A stretch of DNA of 32,000 bases from Massilicoli timonensis (GCF_900199515.1 NZ_LT963433.1:120001-152000); one strand, 5' to 3'; shown: positions 9,181 through 32,000, numbered from the stretch's first letter. Numbers and translations are program-made. Notes: generated from the letters alone by a model not told the origin.

Positions 9181-10052
9181 TCTGCCACCTCCTCGACAAG
9201 GCAGTATCCACTGCCAAGTTCTTCTGCAATGTCCGCACCGATGCGTTCAGCCTCCACACTGTTTGTGGCAGTGAAGATTTTGAAGTTATCATCGTCAAGT
9301 TCCACTCGGTAGGTCTTTTCCGTTTTCGGTGCCTTAAAAGCACTGCTGCCGGAAAGGTTGCGGAGCAGGATTTTTCGCTCGGTCTTGTATTCATTTCCGA
9401 TAAAGCCGAGGCGGAGGAGAAAACAGCGGAATGCGTATTTCTCATTGTCCACCGCTTTTTCCGTGGCATTGATGCGTTTCTGATTTTTGCTCATTTCACA
9501 AAGGGCGGCAATGAAGTGGCTGTAAGCCTTGACCTCATCGGCATCCAATCCTTCTTCAAACCAAGGGAAGGAAACCCTGTCCTCGCCGATTTCGATTGGT
9601 GTTGCCGAAATGCCCAGTGCCTTCTTGATAAGACTGCCCTTGGCATCCAGAAGATTTTTAAGGTTACCGACCGCAACCTTATCAAGGGGAATCGCCACCG
9701 TAAGCCCCACCGTTTCGCCCTGTGGCTCGTTTTCGGAAGGGGCAAGGTAATCCGACGGGCAATCTTCCGTCGGCTCTTCTTCGGAAATTACGGCCTCCTG
9801 CTGTTCGCTGTCATAACGGGAGAAGTCACTCTCAAAGCCTGCATCGTAAAGATGCTCCAGAAGTCTTTCAATGACCTCGCTGTCTGCCATATCATCAAAC
9901 AGCAGGTTGCCTTCCTTGTCGATTGTGAAGTAGTCTACTTCGTATGCGCAGGAAGGGACTCCCTTATACCTGCAATCGACCTCAAGCCAGGTGGCTATGG
10001 TCTGTGCCAGTTCCTTGCGTTTTTTACCGGGAACATTGTAATGAATTTTCAT
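9177..10052 (-). CDS. Hypothetical protein (~291 aa) with an acidic central linker
   Basis: ATG at 10052 with SD TAGGAGGT; the ORF-track start at 10058 is a TTG. No catalytic motif recognised. Confidence 0.65.
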   Translation of the reverse strand: MKIHYNVPGKKRKELAQTIATWLEVDCRYKGVPSCAYEVDYFTIDKEGNLLFDDMADSEVIERLLEHLYDAGFESDFSRYDSEQQEAVISEEEPTEDCPSDYLAPSENEPQGETVGLTVAIPLDKVAVGNLKNLLDAKGSLIKKALGISATPIEIGEDRVSFPWFEEGLDADEVKAYSHFIAALCEMSKNQKRINATEKAVDNEKYAFRCFLLRLGFIGNEYKTERKILLRNLSGSSAFKAPKTEKTYRVELDDDNFKIFTATNSVEAERIGADIAEELGSGYCLVEEVAE

Positions 10053-10126
10053 GTGCAAAACCTCCTATCGTTTTGGTAGTACACATATTCGCTCTAAAAC
10101 CGATAAATAGCAAGTCATATGTGCAA

Positions 10127-10147
10127 AATATAAGGGAGAATAGTTGT
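10127..10147 (-). repeat. Copy 3 of the 21-nt motif ACAACTATT(C)TCCCTTATATT
   Basis: Minus strand reads ACAACTATTCTCCCTTATATT, just after the C5-MTase stop and 75 nt before the next ATG. Compare 17570-17590 and 17492-17512. Confidence 0.6.
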
Positions 10148-10151
10148 AGAT

Positions 10152-11969
10152 TTACACCCCTTCATTTTGTGTATAGTACACGATGCCTGTCAGCACATAC
10201 ACCACATTGGGCAGTGCCACGCCGTTGCCCCACATCTTATACTCCGCCGAGTCGGAATGAGGATTCTGCAGCCACTTGAAGATTTGTTTCCGTGTCTTTG
10301 GTTTGCTTGATGTTCCCACAATCTTACGATGTGTTTCAAAGATTTCTGCCCACCGTGTGAGTTCCTCTTCAGAAGGAAGTTTCTCACCAAGGTCAGCGCA
10401 CCACCAATCTGGAAATCCCTGGAGCCTTGCACACTCCGTAGGGGTAAGTCTGCGGACAATGTATTCCAGATCCGAATCTGTGTCATTGACAAGCGGAGGA
10501 TCTTTGTAATCCGTAGCTACTAAAGTGTTGGCAAGTTCCTCTTCCGCAGAAGTAAAGAACGATGCCTTACTGCTTGAGTAGGTGGGAACGGCAACCGCAT
10601 CGGGTCCCGTGGCTTTCAGTGTAGAATTGATGCCCTCATCACTGATTCCCATATTCCTTGCGAAGTTCTGACCGCAGTTATAACTTTCACGGTCGATAGC
10701 GTAAACAACGGCGTGACGGTCTACGGTGTTTAGGGTGTACATGACATCACTTTCCGCATAACCGTTGCCGTGGTGGGAAGGACGGGAGCCGTTGCCTTCC
10801 ACGATGGCAATGCCGCCCTGGTTGCAGGTGGGGTTACCACCGTTCCCATCAAGGGTACGGGAGGTATCTGCTTTATAAAAACCGCTGTTGGGGTTTGCCG
10901 ATTTCATGGCATTGCTGTCCTTGGAGCAGACACCAAAAGCGGTCGGCTCTACCACAAACGGCTGATTGTTTCCGCCTGTGCCGTAAGTAGCCGCCACGGT
11001 CTGTGCAACATCAAGGGGGCCCACATAGCGGGTATCCTGGGAGTGATTTTCATAAACCGTTGCAGGAACGACTCCCGCTCGGAGCGTCGGAGATTTTTCC
11101 TCCTCATAACCGATGCCACGGCTATCAGCAGAATGTTCCGTACAAAATCCCGCAGACTCCATTACGCAAGGCGGATGGTGTGCCTCGGCTCGGAGAGTGC
11201 AGGTAACATCATCGGTGACATCCATACGGTTACCACCCTGGTCATTTAAGACGATGCCTGTCGCAGGAGTGCTTTCTTCAGAAGTTCCGGCAGTTCTTTT
11301 CCACGGGCATCGGCTCGCCTCAAGATTCCCAAACAGGCCTTCTGACTCAAATAATATTTTTCCGGCACACCCACCATTAAAATCTGCGACAAGATAGATA
11401 CGTCTTCTTCTCTGGGGAACTCCCCAATACTGCGCGTCAACGCATCTCCATGCGATACTGAAACCGTCTCCCAACAGTTCTCCTGCTCCTGTCCATTTTC
11501 CTTTTGGAGGACAAGGCACAGCATAGTCGCCTTTGACGGATGCGACTGCTTCGAGGACTGCTTTGAAATCCTCTCCTGCGTTTGAGGAGAAGGCGCCGGG
11601 GACATTTTCCCACACGATGTATCTTGGATACTCACCATTGGTTTTACACCTCATTTCTTTTACGATTCGGATTGCTTCGTAGAACAGGCAGGAGCGTTCT
11701 CCATCAAGACCACTGCGTTTTCCCGCCACACTCATATCCTGGCAGGGAGAACCGAAAGTGATGATATCCACGGGGTCAATCTCCGCACCGCTTATGGTGG
11801 AGATGTCACCGAGGTGTTTCATCTGCGGAATACGCTTGCTTGTTACACGAATAGGAAAAGGCTCAACTTCCGATGCCCACAAAGGGGTAATACCGGAAAT
11901 CAAGCCTCCCAGAGGAAATCCCCCGGAGCCGTCAAAGAGGCTGCCGAGGGTCATAGGTTTTTTATTCAT
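10152..11969 (-). CDS. DNA (cytosine-5)-methyltransferase with a very large variable region
   Basis: Motif I LFDGSGGF, IV GSPCQDMS, VI WENVPG, VIII QRRRRIYLV, then about 300 aa, then TPTECARLQGFP and GNGVALP. ATG at 11969 with SD GAAGGAGGT, overlapping the upstream stop (ATGAATAA). Confidence 0.92.
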   Translation of the reverse strand: MNKKPMTLGSLFDGSGGFPLGGLISGITPLWASEVEPFPIRVTSKRIPQMKHLGDISTISGAEIDPVDIITFGSPCQDMSVAGKRSGLDGERSCLFYEAIRIVKEMRCKTNGEYPRYIVWENVPGAFSSNAGEDFKAVLEAVASVKGDYAVPCPPKGKWTGAGELLGDGFSIAWRCVDAQYWGVPQRRRRIYLVADFNGGCAGKILFESEGLFGNLEASRCPWKRTAGTSEESTPATGIVLNDQGGNRMDVTDDVTCTLRAEAHHPPCVMESAGFCTEHSADSRGIGYEEEKSPTLRAGVVPATVYENHSQDTRYVGPLDVAQTVAATYGTGGNNQPFVVEPTAFGVCSKDSNAMKSANPNSGFYKADTSRTLDGNGGNPTCNQGGIAIVEGNGSRPSHHGNGYAESDVMYTLNTVDRHAVVYAIDRESYNCGQNFARNMGISDEGINSTLKATGPDAVAVPTYSSSKASFFTSAEEELANTLVATDYKDPPLVNDTDSDLEYIVRRLTPTECARLQGFPDWWCADLGEKLPSEEELTRWAEIFETHRKIVGTSSKPKTRKQIFKWLQNPHSDSAEYKMWGNGVALPNVVYVLTGIVYYTQNEGV

Positions 11970-23898: not shown

Positions 23899-25029
23899 TT
23901 AATCCTCCATAATAAATTCGTTTTTTGCGTCTGATACGTTCATTGCCTGCCTCTTATCCGAAAGGGGAACGAGGGTAGGCTTTCCGGGTGGTTTGATAAC
24001 GAGGCCGCCCAGGATTTCCTCGAATTGCTTTTTGCCCATCAGCTTCTGCATTTCTGTCAGAGTGATAAGGCTCTGACGGTAAATGTCTGTGTACCCGTGT
24101 TCCTTGGCTGCTGCCGCCACCGCATCCTCATCGGAAAACTTACGGTTAGAACGACCTTCGACAACCTTGAACCCGCTCCACGACTTGCCGTGGTTTAGTG
24201 CCGCTTCCAAGGCATAGGCACTGATTTCGTTTGCCCACTTGGTGATGTCCGGCAGCATCGGAAGAATTTCTTCAATCTCCTCATCCGTAAGCAAAGGCGG
24301 AAGTTTGAATTCTTCCTCTGCGATACGGAGTTTTTCTGCTGCCCTCGCACGGCACTTGACCGCCGCACGGCAAAATTGGCACCATTCTCCCGGACAATAT
24401 TCGCCTTCGCCCTTGGCAGCCATCTGAGCCTTGGGTTTCAGTTCGTTTTCCGCCCAGGCTTTCAGTTCTTCCACAGACACCGTCCATGTCTGAACATTCT
24501 CCCTGCGAGGTTGGAAAATCGAAAGTGAAACTTCCTTAATGTCATACAGGCTTTCATAGGCACTGAGTGCTGCGATGCCGTAACACTTCAGCTGCGAATT
24601 TTCCTCTGCGTCAACGAGTACACCAAGTCCGTATTTCATATCGATAATGTGGAGACTGTTATCCGAGACGATGAGGCAATCCGCCGTTCCGTATGCGCCC
24701 GGAACATAATCGGAGAGGTCAACCTTCTGCTCAATCAGCACCAAAGGATCGGGGCAGTTCTGCTTTGCTTTTTCAAGCTGTTCTAAGACAAACTCCACAT
24801 AAGCATCGCTATGTTCTTCCATCTCATCCGTATTAAACGGGGATACCGGACGCTTACTGCGCCTGCGGAGTGCCTTCTTCAACTTGTGTTCGCATAAAGC
24901 GTGAGCCGCAGTACCTTCCTCGGCAGCGTTGCTGCTCTTGTTTTCAAACTCCGTTTCCAAGACCGCACTCGGTGTGCATTGTAACCACCTGTGGGAACTG
25001 GAAGGGGAAAGTAGTGCGTGATTACCCAT
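23899..25029 (-). CDS. DUF2800 Cas4/RecB-like PD-(D/E)xK exonuclease
   Basis: LSPSSSHRWLQCTPS..., GTADCLIV...IIDMKYG and a C-terminal Cys cluster CPGEWCQFCRAAVKC. ATG at 25029 with SD GGAGGTG, overlapping the upstream stop. Confidence 0.8.
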   Translation of the reverse strand: MGNHALLSPSSSHRWLQCTPSAVLETEFENKSSNAAEEGTAAHALCEHKLKKALRRRSKRPVSPFNTDEMEEHSDAYVEFVLEQLEKAKQNCPDPLVLIEQKVDLSDYVPGAYGTADCLIVSDNSLHIIDMKYGLGVLVDAEENSQLKCYGIAALSAYESLYDIKEVSLSIFQPRRENVQTWTVSVEELKAWAENELKPKAQMAAKGEGEYCPGEWCQFCRAAVKCRARAAEKLRIAEEEFKLPPLLTDEEIEEILPMLPDITKWANEISAYALEAALNHGKSWSGFKVVEGRSNRKFSDEDAVAAAAKEHGYTDIYRQSLITLTEMQKLMGKKQFEEILGGLVIKPPGKPTLVPLSDKRQAMNVSDAKNEFIMED

Positions 25030-25372
25030 TGCCAAGCACCTCCGCATCCTTAATAAGGTCTGCATAGTGCTTCGGGTCCACATCCGACAGCTTGCTGCCG
25101 CCGTACTTGGTAATCAAACCCTTTACCTCGGCTGTCATACCGTTCTGCGTCTTAACCGCAAGCACAGCACGGACATCTGCCAAAGTAGGCACCTTTTCTG
25201 CTATCTGCTTTGTGGGTTGTCCTGTTTCGACAGGCTTCGACACTTCCTTGGCATCAACGAAGATTTCCTGGCTGTCAGCAAATGCGTAAGCCACAGCTTC
25301 CAGTCCGTCTGCCAGTGAGTGCATCAGCTTCACCACATCGAGGAGCAGATTAAATTTGTTAGCGTTTGTCAT
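25022..25372 (-). CDS. Hypothetical protein (116 aa)
   Basis: ATG with SD AAGGAGG. No family recognised. Confidence 0.6.
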   Translation of the reverse strand: MTNANKFNLLLDVVKLMHSLADGLEAVAYAFADSQEIFVDAKEVSKPVETGQPTKQIAEKVPTLADVRAVLAVKTQNGMTAEVKGLITKYGGSKLSDVDPKHYADLIKDAEVLGNG

Positions 25373-25571
25373 GGTTCTCGCCTCCTTTCAGTTCGTGAAT
25401 CTCGACGGTCTGCACCGAATCACCTGGAGAGAGAACCAGAACGTTGACCTGCTGACCGAAGAGAAAATCAAGTATTCTCTTGCGAATCTGCATCGTTCCG
25501 CTTCGGACTACCGGAGAAGGTGTGCCGCCGGGTTTTGCAATGTTGATACATACCTTGTGTTTAATTCCCAT
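25359..25571 (-). CDS. Hypothetical small protein (70 aa)
   Basis: ATG with SD AAGGAG 9 nt upstream. Overlaps the next gene by 14 nt. Confidence 0.5.
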   Translation of the reverse strand: MGIKHKVCINIAKPGGTPSPVVRSGTMQIRKRILDFLFGQQVNVLVLSPGDSVQTVEIHELKGGENHDKR

Positions 25572-25627
25572 TGCACTTGGCTCCTTTCCGAGGAGTTTTT
25601 CTCACCCCTCTGTCCATAAGCGAAAAA

Positions 25628-25650
25628 TGAGGGGGAATCGAACCCCCTCA
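25628..25650 (-). terminator. Intrinsic terminator whose hairpin mimics a tRNA T-arm
   Basis: Minus strand U-GAGGGGG-UUCGAUU-CCCCCUC-A followed by UUUUUCGCUU, 12 nt after the stop of the sigma-like gene. Confidence 0.75.
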
Positions 25651-25662
25651 AATCAACTTTTT

Positions 25663-26151
25663 TCAAATTTTCTTTTTCAGCGTTGCATAAATCTTAGTGA
25701 GCCTGTTGCGGATAGCCGCCTCAGAAACGCCTTCTTCTGCTGCAATATCCACATTGGTCATGTTGCGATAGAACTTCTTAACCACGGTATCCTTCTGCTT
25801 GTCCGTCAGTTCCGAAAGAGCCACCTTCAACTTTTCAATCTGAAGAGAACGCTCTTCGTTTGCGATAGAGTTCAGAATCTGCTGCAAAGGATTGTAAGTA
25901 TCATCCTCAAGATACGGGTTGCGGTCATCCGCATCGTCGCCGTCCCCATCGTGGTAGCCTTCATAATGAACTGGACAGTGATATGCCTCTCTACGGTCGG
26001 CATCCAGTTCATCATCGTCCATACCATGAAGCTGTGAGATGATGGTTGCATTTTCTCCGTTTTCGCCGGGAGTGATGGTATAGCTTGTACCATCGTTGAA
26101 GTAATAAATGTAATTTGTACGGTTGTCTTCCGCTGTTTTGAACTTTCTCAT
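25663..26151 (-). CDS. Protein with a sigma-70 region-4-like HTH only, plus an acidic N-terminal region (first phage gene)
   Basis: C-terminal LSELTDKQKDTVVKKFYRNMTNVDIAAEEGVSEAAIRNRLTKIYATLKK is region-4-like. I see no region-2-like segment. The N-terminal half is Asp-rich (HDGDGDDADD). Confidence 0.7.
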   Translation of the reverse strand: MRKFKTAEDNRTNYIYYFNDGTSYTITPGENGENATIISQLHGMDDDELDADRREAYHCPVHYEGYHDGDGDDADDRNPYLEDDTYNPLQQILNSIANEERSLQIEKLKVALSELTDKQKDTVVKKFYRNMTNVDIAAEEGVSEAAIRNRLTKIYATLKKKI

Positions 26152-26156
26152 TTAAA

Positions 26157-26199
26157 GTCCCTGCCTTTCTTTTACGCCCGATTGGGTGGCGGCAGGGAC
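26157..26199 (-). promoter_or_regulatory. Hairpin sequestering the SD of the sigma-like gene
   Basis: GUCCCUGCC-(25 nt)-GGCAGGGAC. The 3' arm carries the only SD-like purines (AGGCAGGGA) and ends 5 nt before the ATG at 26151. Confidence 0.5.
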
Positions 26200-26200
26200 A

Positions 26201-26235
26201 CAAAAAGAGCCGATGTGATGGTACACACCGACTCT
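26201..26235 (-). terminator. Intrinsic terminator inside the early leader
   Basis: AGAGUCGGUGUG-UACCAU-CACAUCGGCUCU forms 12 bp with two G.U pairs (C.A on plus), followed by UUUUG. Confidence 0.65.
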
Positions 26236-26397
26236 GATACCGAAAATGGGTATGACAAAGTACGGTGGGTACATCTGCGGTCAGTCCACGGCTATACCGT
26301 GAAATTGACTCTTGATGTATCCCGCCGCCTTAAGGTCGACCACTTCGGGCATTGGAATATTTTTTCTGACAATCTCCTTGTGTTGATTGTCATAGAC

Positions 26398-26443
26398 ATT
26401 ATAATTCTTTAAAATTTTTCATGACCAACTCGGTGAGTTGGTC
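26398..26443 (-). promoter_or_regulatory. Candidate early promoter (TATAAT) with an overlapping perfect 21-bp palindromic operator
   Basis: Minus-strand TATAAT = plus 26398-26403. Palindrome GACCAACTC-GGT-GAGTTGGTC at 26423-26443. A weak -35-like TTGGTC/TGGTCA lies inside its proximal arm, 18-19 nt from the -10. Confidence 0.5.
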
Positions 26444-26484
26444 GAGGAATGCCCATAATATCGGTGTTTTCTGTTTTTGGGCAT

Positions 26485-26509
26485 AAAAAAAGGACCCCTT
26501 TCGGGGTCC
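26485..26509 (-). terminator. Rho-independent terminator of the hsdR operon
   Basis: Minus strand GGACCCC-GAAA-GGGGUCC followed by UUUUUUU, 28 nt after the stop of the 530-aa gene. Confidence 0.88.
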
Positions 26510-26511
26510 AA

Positions 26512-26532
26512 AACCAACTCAGTGAGTTATCA
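26512..26532. repeat. Degenerate second copy of the operator-like palindrome
   Basis: AACCAACTCAGTGAGTTATCA matches 16 of 21 positions of the 26423-26443 palindrome, offset by 89 bp. Confidence 0.5.
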
Positions 26533-26536
26533 AAAT

Positions 26537-28129
26537 TTATTCATTATCTTTTATTGTACTTCCTAATTCATCAACGCCTGCTCTTTTACAGATGCTATTG
26601 AAATCCTGTACGGAAATACCAGGCATATTCTCCATAATGCGAATATAGGTTTTATCTGGGTCATGGTAATAGTCCAGCTTATTCTTTGACTTTTCAAAAA
26701 TCTTTTCTGTAATACGAAGACTTAATTTCATACCAACACATATAGCCATAAGGACATCCGTACCCATATTGTTGTATTTATCGTTTTTTATCTTTCCGTG
26801 ATAATTTTTATGCAGTCCTGTTCTATCATTGAACACTTCCGGGTAATTCCATTTTCTGTTTTCCATCAAATACCACAGACATTGGCATAGCGTACTCGTC
26901 GGGTCGCCCAATCTTTTCATCAGTTCTATTTCTTCAGCTTCATCATAAACAGAAATATAATCATGAAACGCATCGTAAGCCTCGTCGGGTTCGTATGCAA
27001 AATTAGCCTGATATTTCGGATGAAATGTTAATATTCGTTGGTCTATCCCTTCCACACGATGCAGAACGGAAAAACCAATCAAGTCTTTCGATACATTTCG
27101 GTATTCAGTGTACTTATACTCTCGGATATTAATAGCACATTGAGCCAGCTTTTTCTTTGCTTTTGCTGTTAAATGGAGTTCGCCTTCTTTTAATAGAACA
27201 TACTGCTTCTCAGCAAGGACAAAATAGCCATCTGCATATACGAAACGGCCTCCATCTACCCACTCTCTTAATGATGAGTCTGCGGATAGAAGTTGATAGG
27301 CTTCAAGCGGCGTTAATGCCACCAGTTCCTTGCTTCCTGTTATTTCCGCAAATACTGCATCAAAATCATCAAAAATTCGGAGTTTATCAAGCAAACCAAC
27401 CTCAATCAAACGGTACTTGACCGAAACACGAGATACAATAAAAAATGTACTCAAATCCTCAATAAGGATATCGCAGGATGGAAATATATCGTTTTGTGGG
27501 TCGTTATAACTGGCTATTAACTCCAGTGCCTTCTGTTTGAACATTTCAAAAGGCATCAACACTCTTGGAGCCAATCTATGTGCCTGCCACTCCAACCACT
27601 TTACCTCATTTTCTTTTGTCTTTTTTCCTTCTGGAGGCTCAAAGAATGTTTCAGACTGTCGGCACATAATTGGATACAGTTTTTCTGATGCGGCAGCATT
27701 TTTCAATGCCAAAATTTCAAAATACATCTTATCCTTTTCCCAATGTAGTGCCTCGTGTATAAGAGTATTTCGTTTTGCGCCCTCACCGTAAACCGCCTCA
27801 GAGGCAGGGTCAATCAATATTGTCCCCGCAGGAAAGTGAACGGGCTGAGATGTGCCATTATCGGCATCATATACATCAACCTCTCCATCTAAAAGCAAGC
27901 AACATCCAAATATATCGAGATTTCTCGAAAGTGAAACTTCTTTGACTGTAAGTTGTGCTTCTGCGAGAATCTTCTCAACGGGAAGTGGCATCGGAGACAG
28001 AAGAGCCTCTTTGCAATGCTTAGTCAGATATTTAGTTGCATAATCATCCAGGCGATTCTTGCCAAGAATCAAGGCTCCTGTTTTTTTATTGATATCATAG
28101 ATATCGCTCGATGTCAGCTTCTTCGTCAT
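26537..28129 (-). CDS. ImmA/IrrE-like HExxH metallopeptidase domain protein with an unknown middle region and an XRE-like C-terminal HTH (~530 aa)
   Basis: TLIHEALHWEKD plus EWQAHRLAPRVLMPFEMF fits the ImmA/IrrE pattern HExxH...E..AN.FA..LLMP. C-terminal FNDRTGLHKNYHGKIKNDKYNNMGTDVLMAICVGMKLSL fits an XRE helix-turn-helix pattern. ATG at 28129 with SD AAAGGAGAA; the ORF-track start at 28162 is a TTG. Confidence 0.7.
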   Translation of the reverse strand: MTKKLTSSDIYDINKKTGALILGKNRLDDYATKYLTKHCKEALLSPMPLPVEKILAEAQLTVKEVSLSRNLDIFGCCLLLDGEVDVYDADNGTSQPVHFPAGTILIDPASEAVYGEGAKRNTLIHEALHWEKDKMYFEILALKNAAASEKLYPIMCRQSETFFEPPEGKKTKENEVKWLEWQAHRLAPRVLMPFEMFKQKALELIASYNDPQNDIFPSCDILIEDLSTFFIVSRVSVKYRLIEVGLLDKLRIFDDFDAVFAEITGSKELVALTPLEAYQLLSADSSLREWVDGGRFVYADGYFVLAEKQYVLLKEGELHLTAKAKKKLAQCAINIREYKYTEYRNVSKDLIGFSVLHRVEGIDQRILTFHPKYQANFAYEPDEAYDAFHDYISVYDEAEEIELMKRLGDPTSTLCQCLWYLMENRKWNYPEVFNDRTGLHKNYHGKIKNDKYNNMGTDVLMAICVGMKLSLRITEKIFEKSKNKLDYYHDPDKTYIRIMENMPGISVQDFNSICKRAGVDELGSTIKDNE

Positions 28130-28859
28130 CAATATCGGATTCTCCTTTTTCCATGTAATCAAGAGGCATAGTAGCTAACAATTTCTTTGCTTCACGCCAT
28201 GTCGGATAATACTGCTCTACTAAAGCATGGAACCTATGTGTGTGGTTTTTCTCTAACAAATGCACTAATTCGTGAACAACCACATATTCAAGACACTCCA
28301 CAGGTTTCTTTGCAAGCTGCAAATTAATCCAAATCCTGCGCTTGTCAATATTACACGTGCCCCAGCGAGTTCTCATATTCTTGATACGAACTTCACTCGC
28401 ATAGACTTCCATTTTCTTTTCGCAACTTGCTACAACGGTATCCAGGACACGGCTCAATTCCTGTCTATACCACTCAATAAATAATTTCTCTTTTGCATCC
28501 GTTGATGTACCTTCTGGCACAGTCATTACTATTTTGGTTGGCGTTTTTACAATTTTCTGTTGCTTGCCCTCATAGATGACCTGCAAACGGTATGGTTTAC
28601 CCCACAAGTAATGGGACTCACCGGACACATATTCTCTTTTGCTCTGACGCTCCTGCGCCAACATTCTGTCACGAACCTTAGTAATCTCCGGCAATTTCTT
28701 CAGGACAAATAATTTTATATCTTCATCCTTCAGTTCCAGAGGAGAACTAACAGTCACATTGCCTTCTGGCGGGTTGACTCTGATATACAGATTTTTTAGA
28801 TTGCTCTTTCTGATAATTTCAACAGTCAACCCACCGATTTCCATTTCTTCTTTACGCAT
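28095..28859 (-). CDS. YgjP-like (DUF45, M48-type) metallopeptidase
   Basis: VVHELVHLLEKNHTHRF is the YgjP-type HExxHxxxxNH signature. The ATG at 28859 overlaps the hsdR stop (ATGCGTAA). The ORF-track N-terminal extension to 28961 lies inside hsdR and is rejected. Confidence 0.8.
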   Translation of the reverse strand: MRKEEMEIGGLTVEIIRKSNLKNLYIRVNPPEGNVTVSSPLELKDEDIKLFVLKKLPEITKVRDRMLAQERQSKREYVSGESHYLWGKPYRLQVIYEGKQQKIVKTPTKIVMTVPEGTSTDAKEKLFIEWYRQELSRVLDTVVASCEKKMEVYASEVRIKNMRTRWGTCNIDKRRIWINLQLAKKPVECLEYVVVHELVHLLEKNHTHRFHALVEQYYPTWREAKKLLATMPLDYMEKGESDIDDEEADIERYL

Positions 28860-31800
28860 CGTATTCTTCCTGCCTTTGTGCAATATCGAAGACATTATTG
28901 GTTTCTTCGGTCGCCTTGTCTTCGCTATAGCTATGAAGCAATAATTTTTTATAAATAGCAAGTCTTATACGCTGCTGTTTTTGAAAGTTTCTCTTCCATT
29001 CCGGTTGAATCGATACTCGGATTGCTCCATCAACATCAATCGTCAATTCAACATTCTGCTCAAAATAGTCATACAACGCACGTCTTGCGGCGCTATCCTT
29101 AATCTCATCAGGATAGCTACCACTGGTTTCTGGATGGAGAATGGCTTCCGCCAATTCAACAACCTGTCTGAGATATTCTTCATAACTCATAGCTTCAATT
29201 TTTCGCTGCATGATGATTTTCTTCAGCATCTCAGACAACTTTCCATAGTACACACTATTGGAACTCATCTTCTTAACAATTTCATGCTGTATGTTGTTGT
29301 CGATTGTCTCAGCTTTTGCCTCGTTGTCACCAGGCAGGTCTTTAACCAGATCCGCTGGAGTTGTCGTTTTCCCTTGTAAGAGAAGTTCAACAAGAGACAT
29401 ATTTCCAAGTTCGCTCACCACTTTTGTGTCTTCGGCACGGATGTAGGTGTCCAAAATATAGCGCATATCAGCCTCATATGGCTTGAGGTCAATATAATCG
29501 CAGCTTGCCAACTTAATCATTTCTTTGATTTTGTTATAGCCGGATATTTCACCACGCAGGTGATTTACATCCTCTTCGGTATAACCATAATCAGCAACCA
29601 ATCTGTCGCAGCAGTTGGCAAAGGAACGAGAAAGAGCCGCCGTCAATGCATACAGTGTGTCTCTTCTTGCAGTTTTCTCATCACTTTCGCTGTCATCACC
29701 GCAGAAATATTCAATGTAGTCGGTATCTGCCTGTGGCATAGGAACATTCTCAATCAACGCCTCAAGGGAAGTGAGTGTTCCTTCCAACTCAGATTTTGCT
29801 TCATCGTAGCGATTTTTAATGAGCCCCTCGACATCTTCTTTATCGTAGCCATCGAAGGCCTCGGTTGTGTAATCTGCAACCGCCAGCTGCACATTACGGA
29901 ATAAGTCCATATAATCCACGATATATCCATAATCCTTGTCCTCGCCATCCGGTCTGTTAACACGGCAGATAGCCTGGAACAAGTCATGGTCACGCATGGA
30001 TTTATCAATATAAAGATAGGTTGCGCTCGGAGCGTCAAAGCCAGTCAGCAGTTTATCAACCACAATTAGCAGTTTCATCTGCGCCGGCTCGTGTTTGAAG
30101 CGTTCCTTGGCCTCCTTTTCAAACTCAGCGAGTTTCTTTCCGCCGAGCATACGCTCATAGATTGCTTTTTTATACTCGTCTTCGCTTGCCTGATTAGGGT
30201 CGGTCGTTGCCGTTCTGACACTCTGTGTGGTAGGTTCATAAGAAGTAACAACAGCACACTTGGTAAATCCCATGCTCATGAAGATTTCCCAATAGCGGCA
30301 AGCCTCATAAATACTGTTTGCCACAAGCATAGCTGTGCCACGGTCTTCCTTAAGTCTCGGCTTAAGGCTCATATCAAAAACGATATCGGATGCAATTTTC
30401 TCCAGACGCTGCTTGGAACTATACAGTTTATTGATAGAAGTCCAACTCTGCTTTAATTGGAGTTTTGCACGTTCAGTCAATCCATGTGTTTTGTTTTCAA
30501 ACCACAAATCGACTTTATCCTGGCTGGACAAATCCTGATCTACATCCCTCGCTTCATAACGAAGGTCAAGAACCACGCCGTCCTCTACGCCTTCATCGAA
30601 TTTATAAGTATGGATGTATGTACCGAATGTTTCCAGGCTCGTCTGCTTGTCCGTTTTCAAAAGAGGAGTACCCGTAAAACCAATCAGAACGGCGTTAGGC
30701 ATCAGCGCTTTTACAGCCTCATGCAATTTGCCGGAATTGGTACGGTGACACTCATCGATGAATGCCACGATATTGCCCTTTGCACAGAAATCCTTCGGCA
30801 GGTCCTTCAGCAATTCTTTTCTGTACTGGTCGATATCAGACTGATTTCCTGCGTTATGTCCATATTTGTGAATCAACGAACACACAATAGCATCCTCATT
30901 CTTATCCAAAATGGAACGCAGGTCAGCACAGCTTTTTGCTCTGCGAACCTTTTCGTCTACATCAATGAAAAGGCTTTCAATTTGGTCATCCAGTTCATCA
31001 CGGTCCGTAATAATAACAACACGGCTGTCTGTGACATTTTCAATAATCCACTTGGTAAGCCAAACCATAATCAGCGATTTACCGGAACCTTGGGTGTTCC
31101 AGATGATACCGCCTTCTTTATCTTGGATTCGCTTACGGGCAGCAATATTAGCAAAATACTGATTGTGTCTTGTTACCTTCTTGATGCCTGCATCATATAT
31201 CACAAAATCGTGGATAAGAGACAAGAAGCGTTCCTTATGGCAAATGGAAATTACGCCATCTCTCAAACGGTTAACTTCTTTGACCTGTAACAATTTCACA
31301 GCAGCAGATAAATCGTCGGTTGCTTTTTTGTCCTCTTTCCATTTCAGATAATACTTTTCAGGCGTATCGGTTGTACCATAGAAAAGACCTTCTGCTTCAT
31401 TGCCCGCAAACAGAAACTGTGCCGTACTGAAGAAATTCAGAATGTTTTCACGCTTCTGATTCTGCAACATCTGACGGATGCCTTTTCCGGCACTGACATA
31501 AGAACTCTTCAATTCAAATACGCCGAGTGCGATACCGTTAATATACAGTACAACATCGGGACGTTTTCTCGTCACCTTATCAAAACGCAGAACAGACACT
31601 TCTTCCGCAACATAGAAATCGTTGCTGTCGGTATCGTCCCAATTTATATAGTGTACTGTCTGGCGACGTCCATGCTCATCCTTCGCTCCCTGTCGTCCGT
31701 AACGGAGCAGGGAATATACACCTCGGTTAATTTGATAAAGCGTATCGACCTGGTTATTTACCTTGCTCAAGAGTTCACTGATAGCAGTTTTGATCTGGTC

Positions 31801-31962
31801 ATCACTGTACCCACGCTTTTTCAGATTAGCTTTCAGCAAATCTTCCTTAACGGGTGTGTTATCGATATCTTCAAGGTTTCCAAGATAAGTATAACCAAGG
31901 TCATCAACCAACCAATGCAGGACTCTTTTTTGTAATTTTTTCTCCGCATCTACAGTTGCCAT
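28852..31962 (-). CDS. hsdR: Type I restriction enzyme, R subunit
   Basis: N-terminal PD-(D/E)xK RPDVVLYINGIALGVFELK, Walker A NTQGSGKS, DEAH-like FIDECHR, 1036 aa. SD AAGGAGG before the ATG at 31962. Confidence 0.93.
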   Translation of the reverse strand: MATVDAEKKLQKRVLHWLVDDLGYTYLGNLEDIDNTPVKEDLLKANLKKRGYSDDQIKTAISELLSKVNNQVDTLYQINRGVYSLLRYGRQGAKDEHGRRQTVHYINWDDTDSNDFYVAEEVSVLRFDKVTRKRPDVVLYINGIALGVFELKSSYVSAGKGIRQMLQNQKRENILNFFSTAQFLFAGNEAEGLFYGTTDTPEKYYLKWKEDKKATDDLSAAVKLLQVKEVNRLRDGVISICHKERFLSLIHDFVIYDAGIKKVTRHNQYFANIAARKRIQDKEGGIIWNTQGSGKSLIMVWLTKWIIENVTDSRVVIITDRDELDDQIESLFIDVDEKVRRAKSCADLRSILDKNEDAIVCSLIHKYGHNAGNQSDIDQYRKELLKDLPKDFCAKGNIVAFIDECHRTNSGKLHEAVKALMPNAVLIGFTGTPLLKTDKQTSLETFGTYIHTYKFDEGVEDGVVLDLRYEARDVDQDLSSQDKVDLWFENKTHGLTERAKLQLKQSWTSINKLYSSKQRLEKIASDIVFDMSLKPRLKEDRGTAMLVANSIYEACRYWEIFMSMGFTKCAVVTSYEPTTQSVRTATTDPNQASEDEYKKAIYERMLGGKKLAEFEKEAKERFKHEPAQMKLLIVVDKLLTGFDAPSATYLYIDKSMRDHDLFQAICRVNRPDGEDKDYGYIVDYMDLFRNVQLAVADYTTEAFDGYDKEDVEGLIKNRYDEAKSELEGTLTSLEALIENVPMPQADTDYIEYFCGDDSESDEKTARRDTLYALTAALSRSFANCCDRLVADYGYTEEDVNHLRGEISGYNKIKEMIKLASCDYIDLKPYEADMRYILDTYIRAEDTKVVSELGNMSLVELLLQGKTTTPADLVKDLPGDNEAKAETIDNNIQHEIVKKMSSNSVYYGKLSEMLKKIIMQRKIEAMSYEEYLRQVVELAEAILHPETSGSYPDEIKDSAARRALYDYFEQNVELTIDVDGAIRVSIQPEWKRNFQKQQRIRLAIYKKLLLHSYSEDKATEETNNVFDIAQRQEEYDA

Positions 31963-32000
31963 CTTGCGCCTCCTTACGTAGTTAAACGGACGCGACCTGT

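Follow-up and report, generated by a model that had tools for sequence, protein, structure and literature searches.

Gene content of the locus

The stretch of DNA analysed here, referred to as the window, comprises 32,000 nt of Massilicoli timonensis (GCF_900199515.1, NZ_LT963433.1:120001-152000), and its positions 26537-31962 carry three genes, which encode the restriction subunit of a type I restriction-modification (R-M) system (hsdR), a YgjP-like/DUF45 zinc peptidase (ygjP) and a 530-aa ImmA/IrrE-like protein, termed ImmAL in this report. When the window was read without database searches (the sequence-only reading), the three genes were taken for a three-gene unit; together they make up only the second half, on the 3' side, of an operon of six genes that is cargo of a prophage. 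The genes and the two diagnostic parts of ImmAL are:

28852-31962, minus strand: hsdR, type I restriction subunit, 1036 aa (Pfam, TIGR00348, PADLOC)
28095-28859, minus strand: ygjP, YgjP-like/DUF45 zinc peptidase gene, 254 aa (PF01863)
26537-28129, minus strand: ImmAL gene, 530 aa (phrog_4031, Foldseek, structure model)
27743-27757, minus strand: HEALH zinc-binding motif of ImmAL, H125, E126 and H129 (family alignment)
26690-26902, minus strand: C-terminal XRE-type helix-turn-helix (HTH) domain of ImmAL, residues ~410-480 (HTH_26, profile, Foldseek)

The hsdR product has an N-terminal nuclease domain, a superfamily 2 motor and a helical domain (HSDR_N, 2.9e-31; SWI2_SNF2, 1e-64; T1R_D3, 1.9e-34 in Pfam), scores 488 bits with the curated model TIGR00348 (cut-off 284.55) and matches the PADLOC REase_I model (E=0); a ribosome-binding site, AAGGAGG, precedes its ATG. 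The hsdR stop codon TAA (28852-28854) lies within ATGCGTAA and the ygjP ATG is found at 28857-28859, which gives an overlap of 8 nt, the common hsdR/ygjP junction among relatives. The ATG of ImmAL at 28129, the Met at which its homologues also begin, precedes the end of ygjP at 28095 by a 35-nt overlap, and in relatives these two genes are separated by up to 3 nt or overlap by up to 35 nt. Both overlaps had been described in the sequence-only reading and are borne out here, as is its assignment of HExxH motifs to both downstream genes, the catalytic residues being invariant in both families (see below).

A six-gene operon in a prophage

Two metagenome contigs (L001 and L004) with 100% identity to window positions 25001-32000 reach further upstream, and directly ahead of hsdR they carry an HTH_17 gene (64 aa), hsdM (894 aa) and hsdS, the stop codon of which lies 9 nt ahead of the hsdR ATG. 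The two partner genes of hsdR are found in the same locus, beyond position 31962, where they had been expected from the sequence. Since HTH_17, hsdM and hsdS stand upstream on identical contigs, the unit consists of six genes, not three, in the order HTH_17, hsdM (long), hsdS, hsdR, ygjP, ImmAL, and the window holds its 3' half. HsdM is ~895 aa long in all loci with this cassette, and comparison with Pfam, NCBIfam and PDB sequences gave no match for its C-terminal ~440 residues (residues ~452-894, L001 3632-4960, just outside the window), an uncharacterised extension peculiar to the present R-M subfamily. Two mutually unrelated genes occur at the head of the cassette among the loci surveyed (L005-L068), namely one for an HTH_17/excisionase-like protein in ~15 loci, including the contig of the window, and one for a Phd/YefM-like protein of 70-74 aa in ~21 loci, with Pfam and NCBIfam matches just below threshold.

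The region is best explained as the 3' half of a lysogenic-conversion operon on a temperate phage of the Phi-m46.1/Ca. Heliusvirales type that is integrated beside rumA. The operon is placed between the host rumA and the early genes of the prophage, as the gene order on the contigs identical to the window is rumA, DUF4268, HTH_17, hsdM, hsdS, hsdR, ygjP, ImmAL and a sigma-like gene, followed by genes for a DUF2800 nuclease, a single-stranded DNA (ssDNA)-binding protein, DNA polymerase A, a VapE primase and an SNF2 helicase. The G+C content is ~0.49 in the phage part and drops to 0.40-0.44 in the R-M cassette, as expected of acquired cargo. A scan of one genome per species yielded 64 loci with a close ImmAL homologue (40-98% identity), mostly from Bacillota and also from Eggerthellaceae, Corynebacterium, Synergistaceae, a Thermoguttaceae metagenome-assembled genome and others. 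In ~30 of these species loci, a rumA-type RNA methyltransferase gene lies one or two genes upstream, and in at least 27 of 50 related loci the first downstream open reading frame (ORF) is sigma-70 region-4-like, followed by one of two phage replication modules. PV036457.1, the complete genome of a Ca. Heliusvirales phage recovered from human faeces, likewise contains the cassette in full. In the window, positions 1-26151 hold the early/replication part of the prophage and then large ORFs, all on the minus strand, and the gene next to the operon is:

25663-26151, minus strand: sigma-70 region-4-like gene, first of the phage early/replication module and outside the operon (Sigma70_r4_2, Sigma70_r4 and PHROG sigma-factor matches)

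ImmAL, an N-terminally shortened member of phrog_4031

ImmAL combines a putative M78 peptidase domain with a C-terminal HTH. Its HEALH motif is joined by a distal ligand, E180, within LEWQAHRLAPRVLMP, and H125, E126, H129, W130, E180, Q182 and A183 are invariant in 100 family members, which include longer relatives of ~630 aa and fusions with YgjP. With the Pfam model Peptidase_M78 (PF06114) ImmAL reaches 17.7 bits, below the gathering threshold of 22, which is exceeded by its relatives P0144 (28.7), P0132 (28.6) and a Streptococcus suis phage protein (32.5). A structure model built from 100 sequences (predicted local distance difference test score, pLDDT, 84.6) has the IrrE structures 3DTI/3DTE as best PDB matches in Foldseek (E 2e-3, probability 1.0, 219 columns), so that the structural comparison proposed in the sequence-only reading places ImmAL with IrrE. 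A first model from 16 sequences (pLDDT 72.7) had given only noise in Foldseek and was replaced by the 100-sequence model, and a narrow ImmAL family profile had no matches among PDB sequences. The features of an M78 active site and fold are present, that is, HExxH with a distal Glu in an ExxAN-like helix and an IrrE-like predicted fold. A further residue, C156, shows at least 90% conservation and is placed by the structure prediction on a beta-strand located between H129 and E180. In CapP, the zinc-capping 'cysteine switch' residue Cys113 is located between H100 and E129, and C156 of the ImmAL model parallels it, which makes C156 a candidate cysteine switch, to be taken as a lead only.

The C-terminal HTH matches HTH_26 of Pfam just below threshold (E 2e-4), while HTH_3 is above threshold in the S. 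suis phage homologue that also passes M78. The ImmAL family profile matches C.BclI (3e-5), HipB and SinR, and the C-terminal ~70 residues of the model match SinR, P22 C2 and C.Esp1396I in Foldseek. Over its whole length, ImmAL belongs to the phage family phrog_4031 (E 2.1e-63, 215.8 bits), its residues 22-521 aligning to profile positions 138-625 of 626; as the match begins at position 138, ImmAL is an N-terminally shortened member. Of the 1755 protein clusters collected by a profile search, 293 have E < 1e-30, and most members are ~620-640 aa long, with ~135 extra N-terminal residues that form an XRE HTH in several. Members of the 630-aa class align to ImmAL residues 21-527 from their own residue ~140, and the full-length layout of the family is an N-terminal XRE HTH, an M78 peptidase, a beta-rich domain and a C-terminal XRE HTH.

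Conserved palindromes around the terminator

The space between ImmAL and the sigma-like gene contains the following elements:

26514-26530, no strand: PAL1, a 17-bp palindrome, CCAACTCAGTGAGTTAT, 6 nt past the ImmAL stop codon
26485-26509, minus strand: intrinsic terminator closing the operon, GGACCCCGAAAGGGGTCC followed by T7, a GC-rich hairpin
26425-26441, no strand: PAL2, a 17-bp palindrome, CCAACTCGGTGAGTTGG, 89 nt from PAL1, abutting or overlapping the -35 element of the next promoter
26398-26427, minus strand: promoter-like site (TGGTCA, 18 nt, TATAAT) for the sigma-like gene, 10 of 12 matches

A consensus scan by itself returned 5 terminator-like sites, against 4.6 in shuffled sequence. 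The hairpin after the third gene is confirmed as the one strong terminator that had been noticed there, its position being kept in dozens of loci with compensatory stems (GAACCCC/GGGGTTC, GAGTCCC/GGGGCTC, GGGCCCC/GGGGCCC). An Rfam search of positions 24000-32000 at E <= 1 retrieved no known RNA element.

PAL1 and PAL2 share the motif CCAACTCnnnGAGTTGG, which flanks the terminator on both sides in the manner of an operator pair. The pair is present in 58 loci, corresponding to 43 distinct sequences, and the two sites are 87-89 nt apart in 37 of the latter; at least 90% conservation of the arms is accompanied by a free central 3 nt and a poorly conserved spacer, and a -10 box is conserved ~22 nt past PAL2 across loci. 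The two palindromes also co-vary, both being AACTT..AAGTT in the divergent loci L037, L041, L042 and L045. In the window the motif occurs at three distinct sites, with six strand-wise matches against 0.44 expected by chance. The pair has the signature of a dimeric HTH operator pair. Since the palindromes accompany the cassette with either an HTH_17 or a Phd-like first gene and with any type of downstream gene, ImmAL is the sole constant HTH-bearing protein encoded nearby, and we infer that it binds PAL1 and PAL2. When the recognition helix of the HTH was compared by eye with the PAL variants, their co-variation was not decisive.

Two other roles for the palindromes were considered. A recognition site of HsdS was rejected because the hsdS genes differ between loci while the palindromes are constant, and autoregulation from upstream of the operon was rejected as no copies are located there. 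The only other copy in the window, a PAL core (AACTCGCTGAGTT) at 30122-30134, lies inside the hsdR coding sequence, is also found in L001-L004 and may be a chance occurrence or an internal binding site.

YgjP and the linkage with type I R-M genes

YgjP is a clear match to PF01863 (E 1.5e-60, 205.2 bits against a gathering threshold of 26), with residues 23-229 aligned to positions 2-205 of 207, and has weaker Pfam matches to SprT-like, WLM and matrixin. Its profile matches the minigluzincins projannalysin and selecase, and the zinc motif HELVH...H (H196, E197, H200, H206) is invariant in 12 diverse members, including fusions. YgjP is a member of the SprT/WLM/minigluzincin-like zincins with predicted peptidase activity. 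No NCBIfam model matches YgjP or ImmAL. In viral contigs, 30 of 32 YgjP relatives stand directly after hsdR; among these 30, ImmAL is a gene of its own in 17, part of a fusion in 8 and absent in 5. Because YgjP keeps this position even in the loci that lack an ImmAL-like gene, it is the usual partner of HsdR, with a history different from that of ImmAL. This agrees with the statement in the sequence-only reading that YgjP-like genes recur beside hsdR, as does the RRDM island of enteropathogenic Escherichia coli (EPEC), for which the HsdR-YgjP pairing has been noticed, with the gene termed M48 and no function given (PMC12255303). No functional study of YgjP, DUF45, COG1451 or M48 in connection with restriction was found in the literature, and the cassette provides a good model for asking what the unexplained pairing does.

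The linkage of ImmAL itself is tight. Directly upstream of it, ygjP is found in 64 of 64 species loci and in 20 IMG/VR viral contigs, and the order hsdM (~895 aa), hsdS, hsdR, ygjP, ImmAL is kept with near-identical spacing wherever the contig is long enough; L018 has an assembly gap in the upstream region. The exception is L033 (Alkalibacterium indicireducens), the only locus seen with the ygjP-ImmAL pair but without R-M genes, where the pair (9184-11587), the palindromes and the downstream phage genes are present and unrelated minus-strand genes replace hsdMSR. The two peptidase genes are also found as a single polypeptide of 851-857 aa directly after hsdR, and these YgjP::ImmAL-type fusions form clusters of 239, 19 and 6 member sequences and occur on 8 viral contigs. 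In loci of the fusion type, the HTH_17-hsd-fusion operon and the early genes have divergent orientations, so that the cassette is inverted relative to the latter with ImmAL still at its 3' end, and there is no second ImmAL. The long HsdM is found there as well (889-892 aa). DUF4268, which recurs around the cassette, is a separate gene between rumA and HTH_17 (L001 837-1820), is fused to GmrSD downstream of a YgjP::ImmAL fusion (L075 11578-14584) or is fused to YgjP-ImmAL (L077 4969-7800), as in the 943-aa protein P0340. The fixed cassette, from the long HsdM to the terminator with its flanking palindromes, is widely distributed in Bacillota and has also reached Actinomycetota and further phyla.

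Such linkage is what would be expected if YgjP and ImmAL were a dedicated two-peptidase accessory of long-HsdM type I R-M systems, which degrades stalled HsdR, or HsdR engaged on host DNA, to alleviate restriction or responds to anti-restriction attack, a reading that we regard as possible, if on the unlikely side. Restriction alleviation has a precedent in the action of ClpXP on EcoKI. The accessory reading draws on the close ImmAL homologues, all of which follow ygjP and, where the upstream part is complete, hsdMSR (bar L033), on the tight or overlapping hsdR/ygjP/ImmAL junctions, on the fusions as established lineages that always directly follow hsdR, on the 3' position that ImmAL retains in the inverted cassettes and on the place of YgjP among SprT/WLM-like zincins. 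In a rough neighbour-joining tree the 530-aa class forms a single clade and the fusions another, and two further short forms without the N-terminal HTH, L103 3030-4667 (545 aa) and L159 9977-11470 (497 aa), fall elsewhere; these lie 51 and 34 nt behind hsdR, respectively, both without YgjP. Short forms behind hsdR therefore occur in three separate clades (530-aa class, L103, L159), and since those of other clades also directly follow hsdR, arrival of the gene at this position was apparently accompanied in each case by loss of the N-terminal HTH. Against the accessory reading, the 530-aa class is one clade, so that its linkage may reflect inheritance rather than repeated selection, YgjP follows hsdR without ImmAL in 5 loci and in the EPEC island, L033 retains ygjP and ImmAL without R-M genes upstream, neighbouring overlapping genes fuse easily and neither YgjP nor ImmAL is part of any PADLOC model.

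A defence-cargo slot bordered by ImmAL-type genes

The wider family weighs further against a dedicated role in restriction. IMG/VR contains 443 ImmAL relatives, and in ~60 viral loci with the long form the downstream genes are almost always a sigma-like gene, a small conserved gene, DUF2800 and an ssDNA-binding protein, whereas the upstream genes are as different as LlaJI-type R-M, RosmerTA, type I R-M and the radical-SAM candidates PDC-M30/M41, which begin with a small divergent HTH_26 gene. Because the downstream early genes are constant while the upstream cargo varies, ImmAL-type genes belong to the phage backbone, where they mark the boundary of the early genes with a slot for defence cargo. 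Type I R-M is found beside the long form in roughly nine viral loci, and ~50 of the 60 distant relatives are not beside any type I R-M system and border very different cargo. The neighbourhood survey suggested in the sequence-only reading has therefore given a divided answer, namely total linkage to hsdR and ygjP for close ImmAL homologues, yet only ~15% for distant ones, and proteolytic control of restriction, which had been put forward there, is conceivable but no longer the best-supported role.

Among the viral loci L100-L159, the slot upstream of the 630-aa genes is a defence-cargo hotspot that includes several type I R-M systems. In Anaeroselena agilis a radical-SAM operon, not R-M, fills the slot between rumA and a long ImmAL gene, and in the 'rum' phages of S. 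suis the 628-aa form is located at the left end, beside a divergent small XRE gene. A 264-280-aa HTH_26 protein encoded between an LlaJI cassette and full-length ImmAL (~8745-9563 in L113, L115, L126, L128, L132 and L135) also matches the ImmAL profile and may be a split or duplicated regulatory domain. In L076 (2690-5797), the 1035-aa protein P0371 joins an N6 DNA methylase domain to an ImmAL-homologous region, with ANT and ParB_N neighbours in a phage-like setting, and is another fusion that ties the ImmAL family to DNA modification enzymes.

The varied cargo brings two further explanations into play. ImmAL could be a CapH-CapP-type regulator of the defence cargo, which shifts R-M expression upon damage or infection as described for CBASS and DISARM. 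The layout of ImmAL does resemble the CapH-CapP fusions reported beside DISARM, a 624-aa relative and a DISARM-like operon (SNF2 + DUF1156) have divergent orientations, the cargo operon of 16 viral loci starts with a small HTH_26 gene that is divergent from the 630-aa form, hsdM/hsdS are divergent in L127 and L131, and ImmAL has a candidate cysteine switch. Yet the PADLOC capP/capH models do not match ImmAL at E <= 0.1, although the same models match an RmrA protein of a related locus, a GAF domain is not recognised in ImmAL, and its gene is the last of the operon instead of being upstream and divergent, with conserved palindromes only at the 3' end and none upstream of the operon. A direct regulator of the cargo is hence a decidedly unlikely role. 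The second explanation is an effector of the toxin-antitoxin or abortive-infection type, in which ImmAL, with or without YgjP, acts once the R-M system is inhibited, like RmrA of RosmerTA or PrrC in type I R-M loci. HTH + M78 proteins are the regulatory partner in RosmerTA, which fills the same cargo slot in related phages, and the embedding of PrrC-type genes in hsd loci is a known precedent. The cassette has no toxin-like partner (a gene for DUF5986, the RmrT toxin, is absent from it) and no nuclease domain, the PADLOC RmrA models do not match ImmAL, although in other loci they do match the protein of 403 aa next to it, the only PADLOC match of ImmAL is a meaningless one to MkoB (E 0.021), and ImmAL is present whatever the cargo, all of which makes an effector function highly improbable.

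A putative gate between cargo and early genes

The explanation that we prefer, with about an even chance of being correct, is that the R-M system and YgjP are defence cargo co-transcribed with a CapP/ImmA-like sensor protease-HTH protein that acts as gatekeeper of the early promoter. ImmAL would probably be a phage gatekeeper joined to R-M cargo, not a regulator of HsdR, and its link to restriction positional. ImmA, IrrE and CapP are M78 metallopeptidases that cleave an XRE repressor upon exposure to ssDNA or DNA damage. By analogy, the six genes would be made as one transcript in the lysogen, which the R-M system would protect, with YgjP, of the SprT/WLM-like type, as the peptidase that usually accompanies HsdR. 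ImmAL would bind PAL1 and PAL2 through its C-terminal HTH as a dimer of dimers and, together with the terminator, would hold the early promoter shut, while the peptidase domain would be kept inactive, possibly via a CapP-like cysteine switch at C156. Upon activation by ssDNA or DNA damage, as for ImmA, IrrE and CapP, ImmAL would cleave either a partner or its own chain, the latter probably in a disordered linker around residues 375-395, and the cleavage would free the HTH and open the early promoter.

Several observations weigh against this gate. ImmA-type proteases normally come with a separate XRE repressor as substrate, and the cassette has no such gene, an XRE HTH being present only in cis at the C-terminus of ImmAL; the N-terminal HTH of the relatives is moreover missing from the 530-aa class. 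PAL-like sites were not seen downstream of the 630-aa genes of L069 and L073 or, in fusion-type loci, in the space that separates the operon from the divergent early genes, and the binder of the palindromes could be a phage protein encoded elsewhere. The co-transcription and translational coupling of the cassette are presumed from its sequence. The total linkage with YgjP and R-M genes, the stable YgjP::ImmAL fusions and the independent short forms behind hsdR also speak against a gatekeeper, and a restriction-tied role fits them at least as well. A combination of both roles is conceivable, in which YgjP and ImmAL form a dual-metalloprotease module, dedicated to a distinct type I R-M subfamily carried by phages, that senses ssDNA or breaks arising from R-M cutting or anti-restriction attack and answers by proteolysis of HsdR and/or the ImmAL HTH. 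Such a module appears unlikely; if it existed, cleavage of HsdR would provide built-in restriction alleviation and cleavage of the HTH would open the PAL-gated promoter, so that restriction would be wired to prophage early-gene expression in an 'abandon ship or reinforce' switch.

If the gatekeeper reading and the family assignment hold, phrog_4031, a large phage family of so far no assigned function, would gain a concrete role. The family marks the border of a defence-cargo hotspot in prophages of the Heliusvirales type, a phage lineage that ranks with the most widespread ones in the human gut, and if the protease gate responds to DNA damage, the prophage would couple the defence genes that it carries to the lysis-lysogeny decision.

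Comparison with known systems

The sequence-only reading could map the unit to no described system, and this still holds, as neither the cassette nor the PAL gate is described in any paper found, and this gene is not discussed in those on Heliusvirales or on Phi-m46.1/rum phages. The closest counterparts of ImmAL are ImmA/ImmR of ICEBs1, IrrE/DdrO of Deinococcus and CapP/CapH, with which it shares HExxH and a distal Glu, an IrrE-like predicted fold and an XRE-type HTH. As with these proteases, ImmAL is encoded on a mobile element and the genes that border it are potentially derepressed; a conserved Cys on an inserted strand of the predicted structure recalls CapP, and ImmAL has a sigma-70-like neighbour, which it shares with 24 CapH/CapP systems. 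In contrast to ImmA, IrrE and CapP, the ImmAL family is larger (530-640 aa), has an extra beta-rich middle domain and carries the HTH at the C-terminus of the same chain, without a separate repressor gene; ImmAL itself scores below the M78 threshold and has no capP match. Compared with CapP/CapH, ImmAL is the last gene and on the same strand as its cargo, from which some 630-aa relatives are divergent. QGJ85663.1, the 628-aa example of phrog_4031 from Streptococcus phage phi-SsuFJSM5_rum, is homologous and lies at the left end of a rumA-integrating phage, upstream of early genes, whereas in ImmAL the N-terminal HTH region (profile positions up to ~137) is missing, and its gene is overlapped by ygjP instead of having its own promoter.

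Among defence loci, the RptR-hsdM-hsdS-darTG-hsdR-M48 island of EPEC (PMC12255303) likewise has a YgjP/DUF45-type HExxH gene directly after hsdR and a small regulator gene at its 5' end, but the present cassette is phage-borne, has a long HsdM (~440-aa extension) and an extra ImmA-like gene, and starts with an HTH_17 or Phd-like gene, not RptR. The extra genes attached to an hsd operon are reminiscent of PrrC/RloC and DarTG in type I R-M loci, although the cassette has no anticodon-nuclease, ABC-ATPase or ADP-ribosyltransferase domains and its added genes are two zinc peptidases. The R-M controller (C) proteins C.BclI and C.Esp1396I resemble only the HTH fold of ImmAL; C proteins have ~80 aa, are encoded upstream of the R gene and act with an upstream C-box, whereas ImmAL has 530 aa, is encoded last and has palindromes only 3' of the operon. 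RosmerTA differs in that ImmAL does not match RmrA and the cassette has no adjacent RmrT. The cI-rexAB operon of phage lambda, like other prophage defence genes transcribed together with the immunity gene, provides a parallel for defence cargo and a putative gate regulator presumably carried on one lysogenic transcript next to an early promoter; the cassette differs in having its cargo first and, in last place, a regulator with a built-in protease domain. Switches composed of a protease and a repressor are well described, and ImmAL resembles them on paper yet lacks several of the marks by which their members are recognised. The arrangement itself is real and widespread, and most of its parts are familiar.

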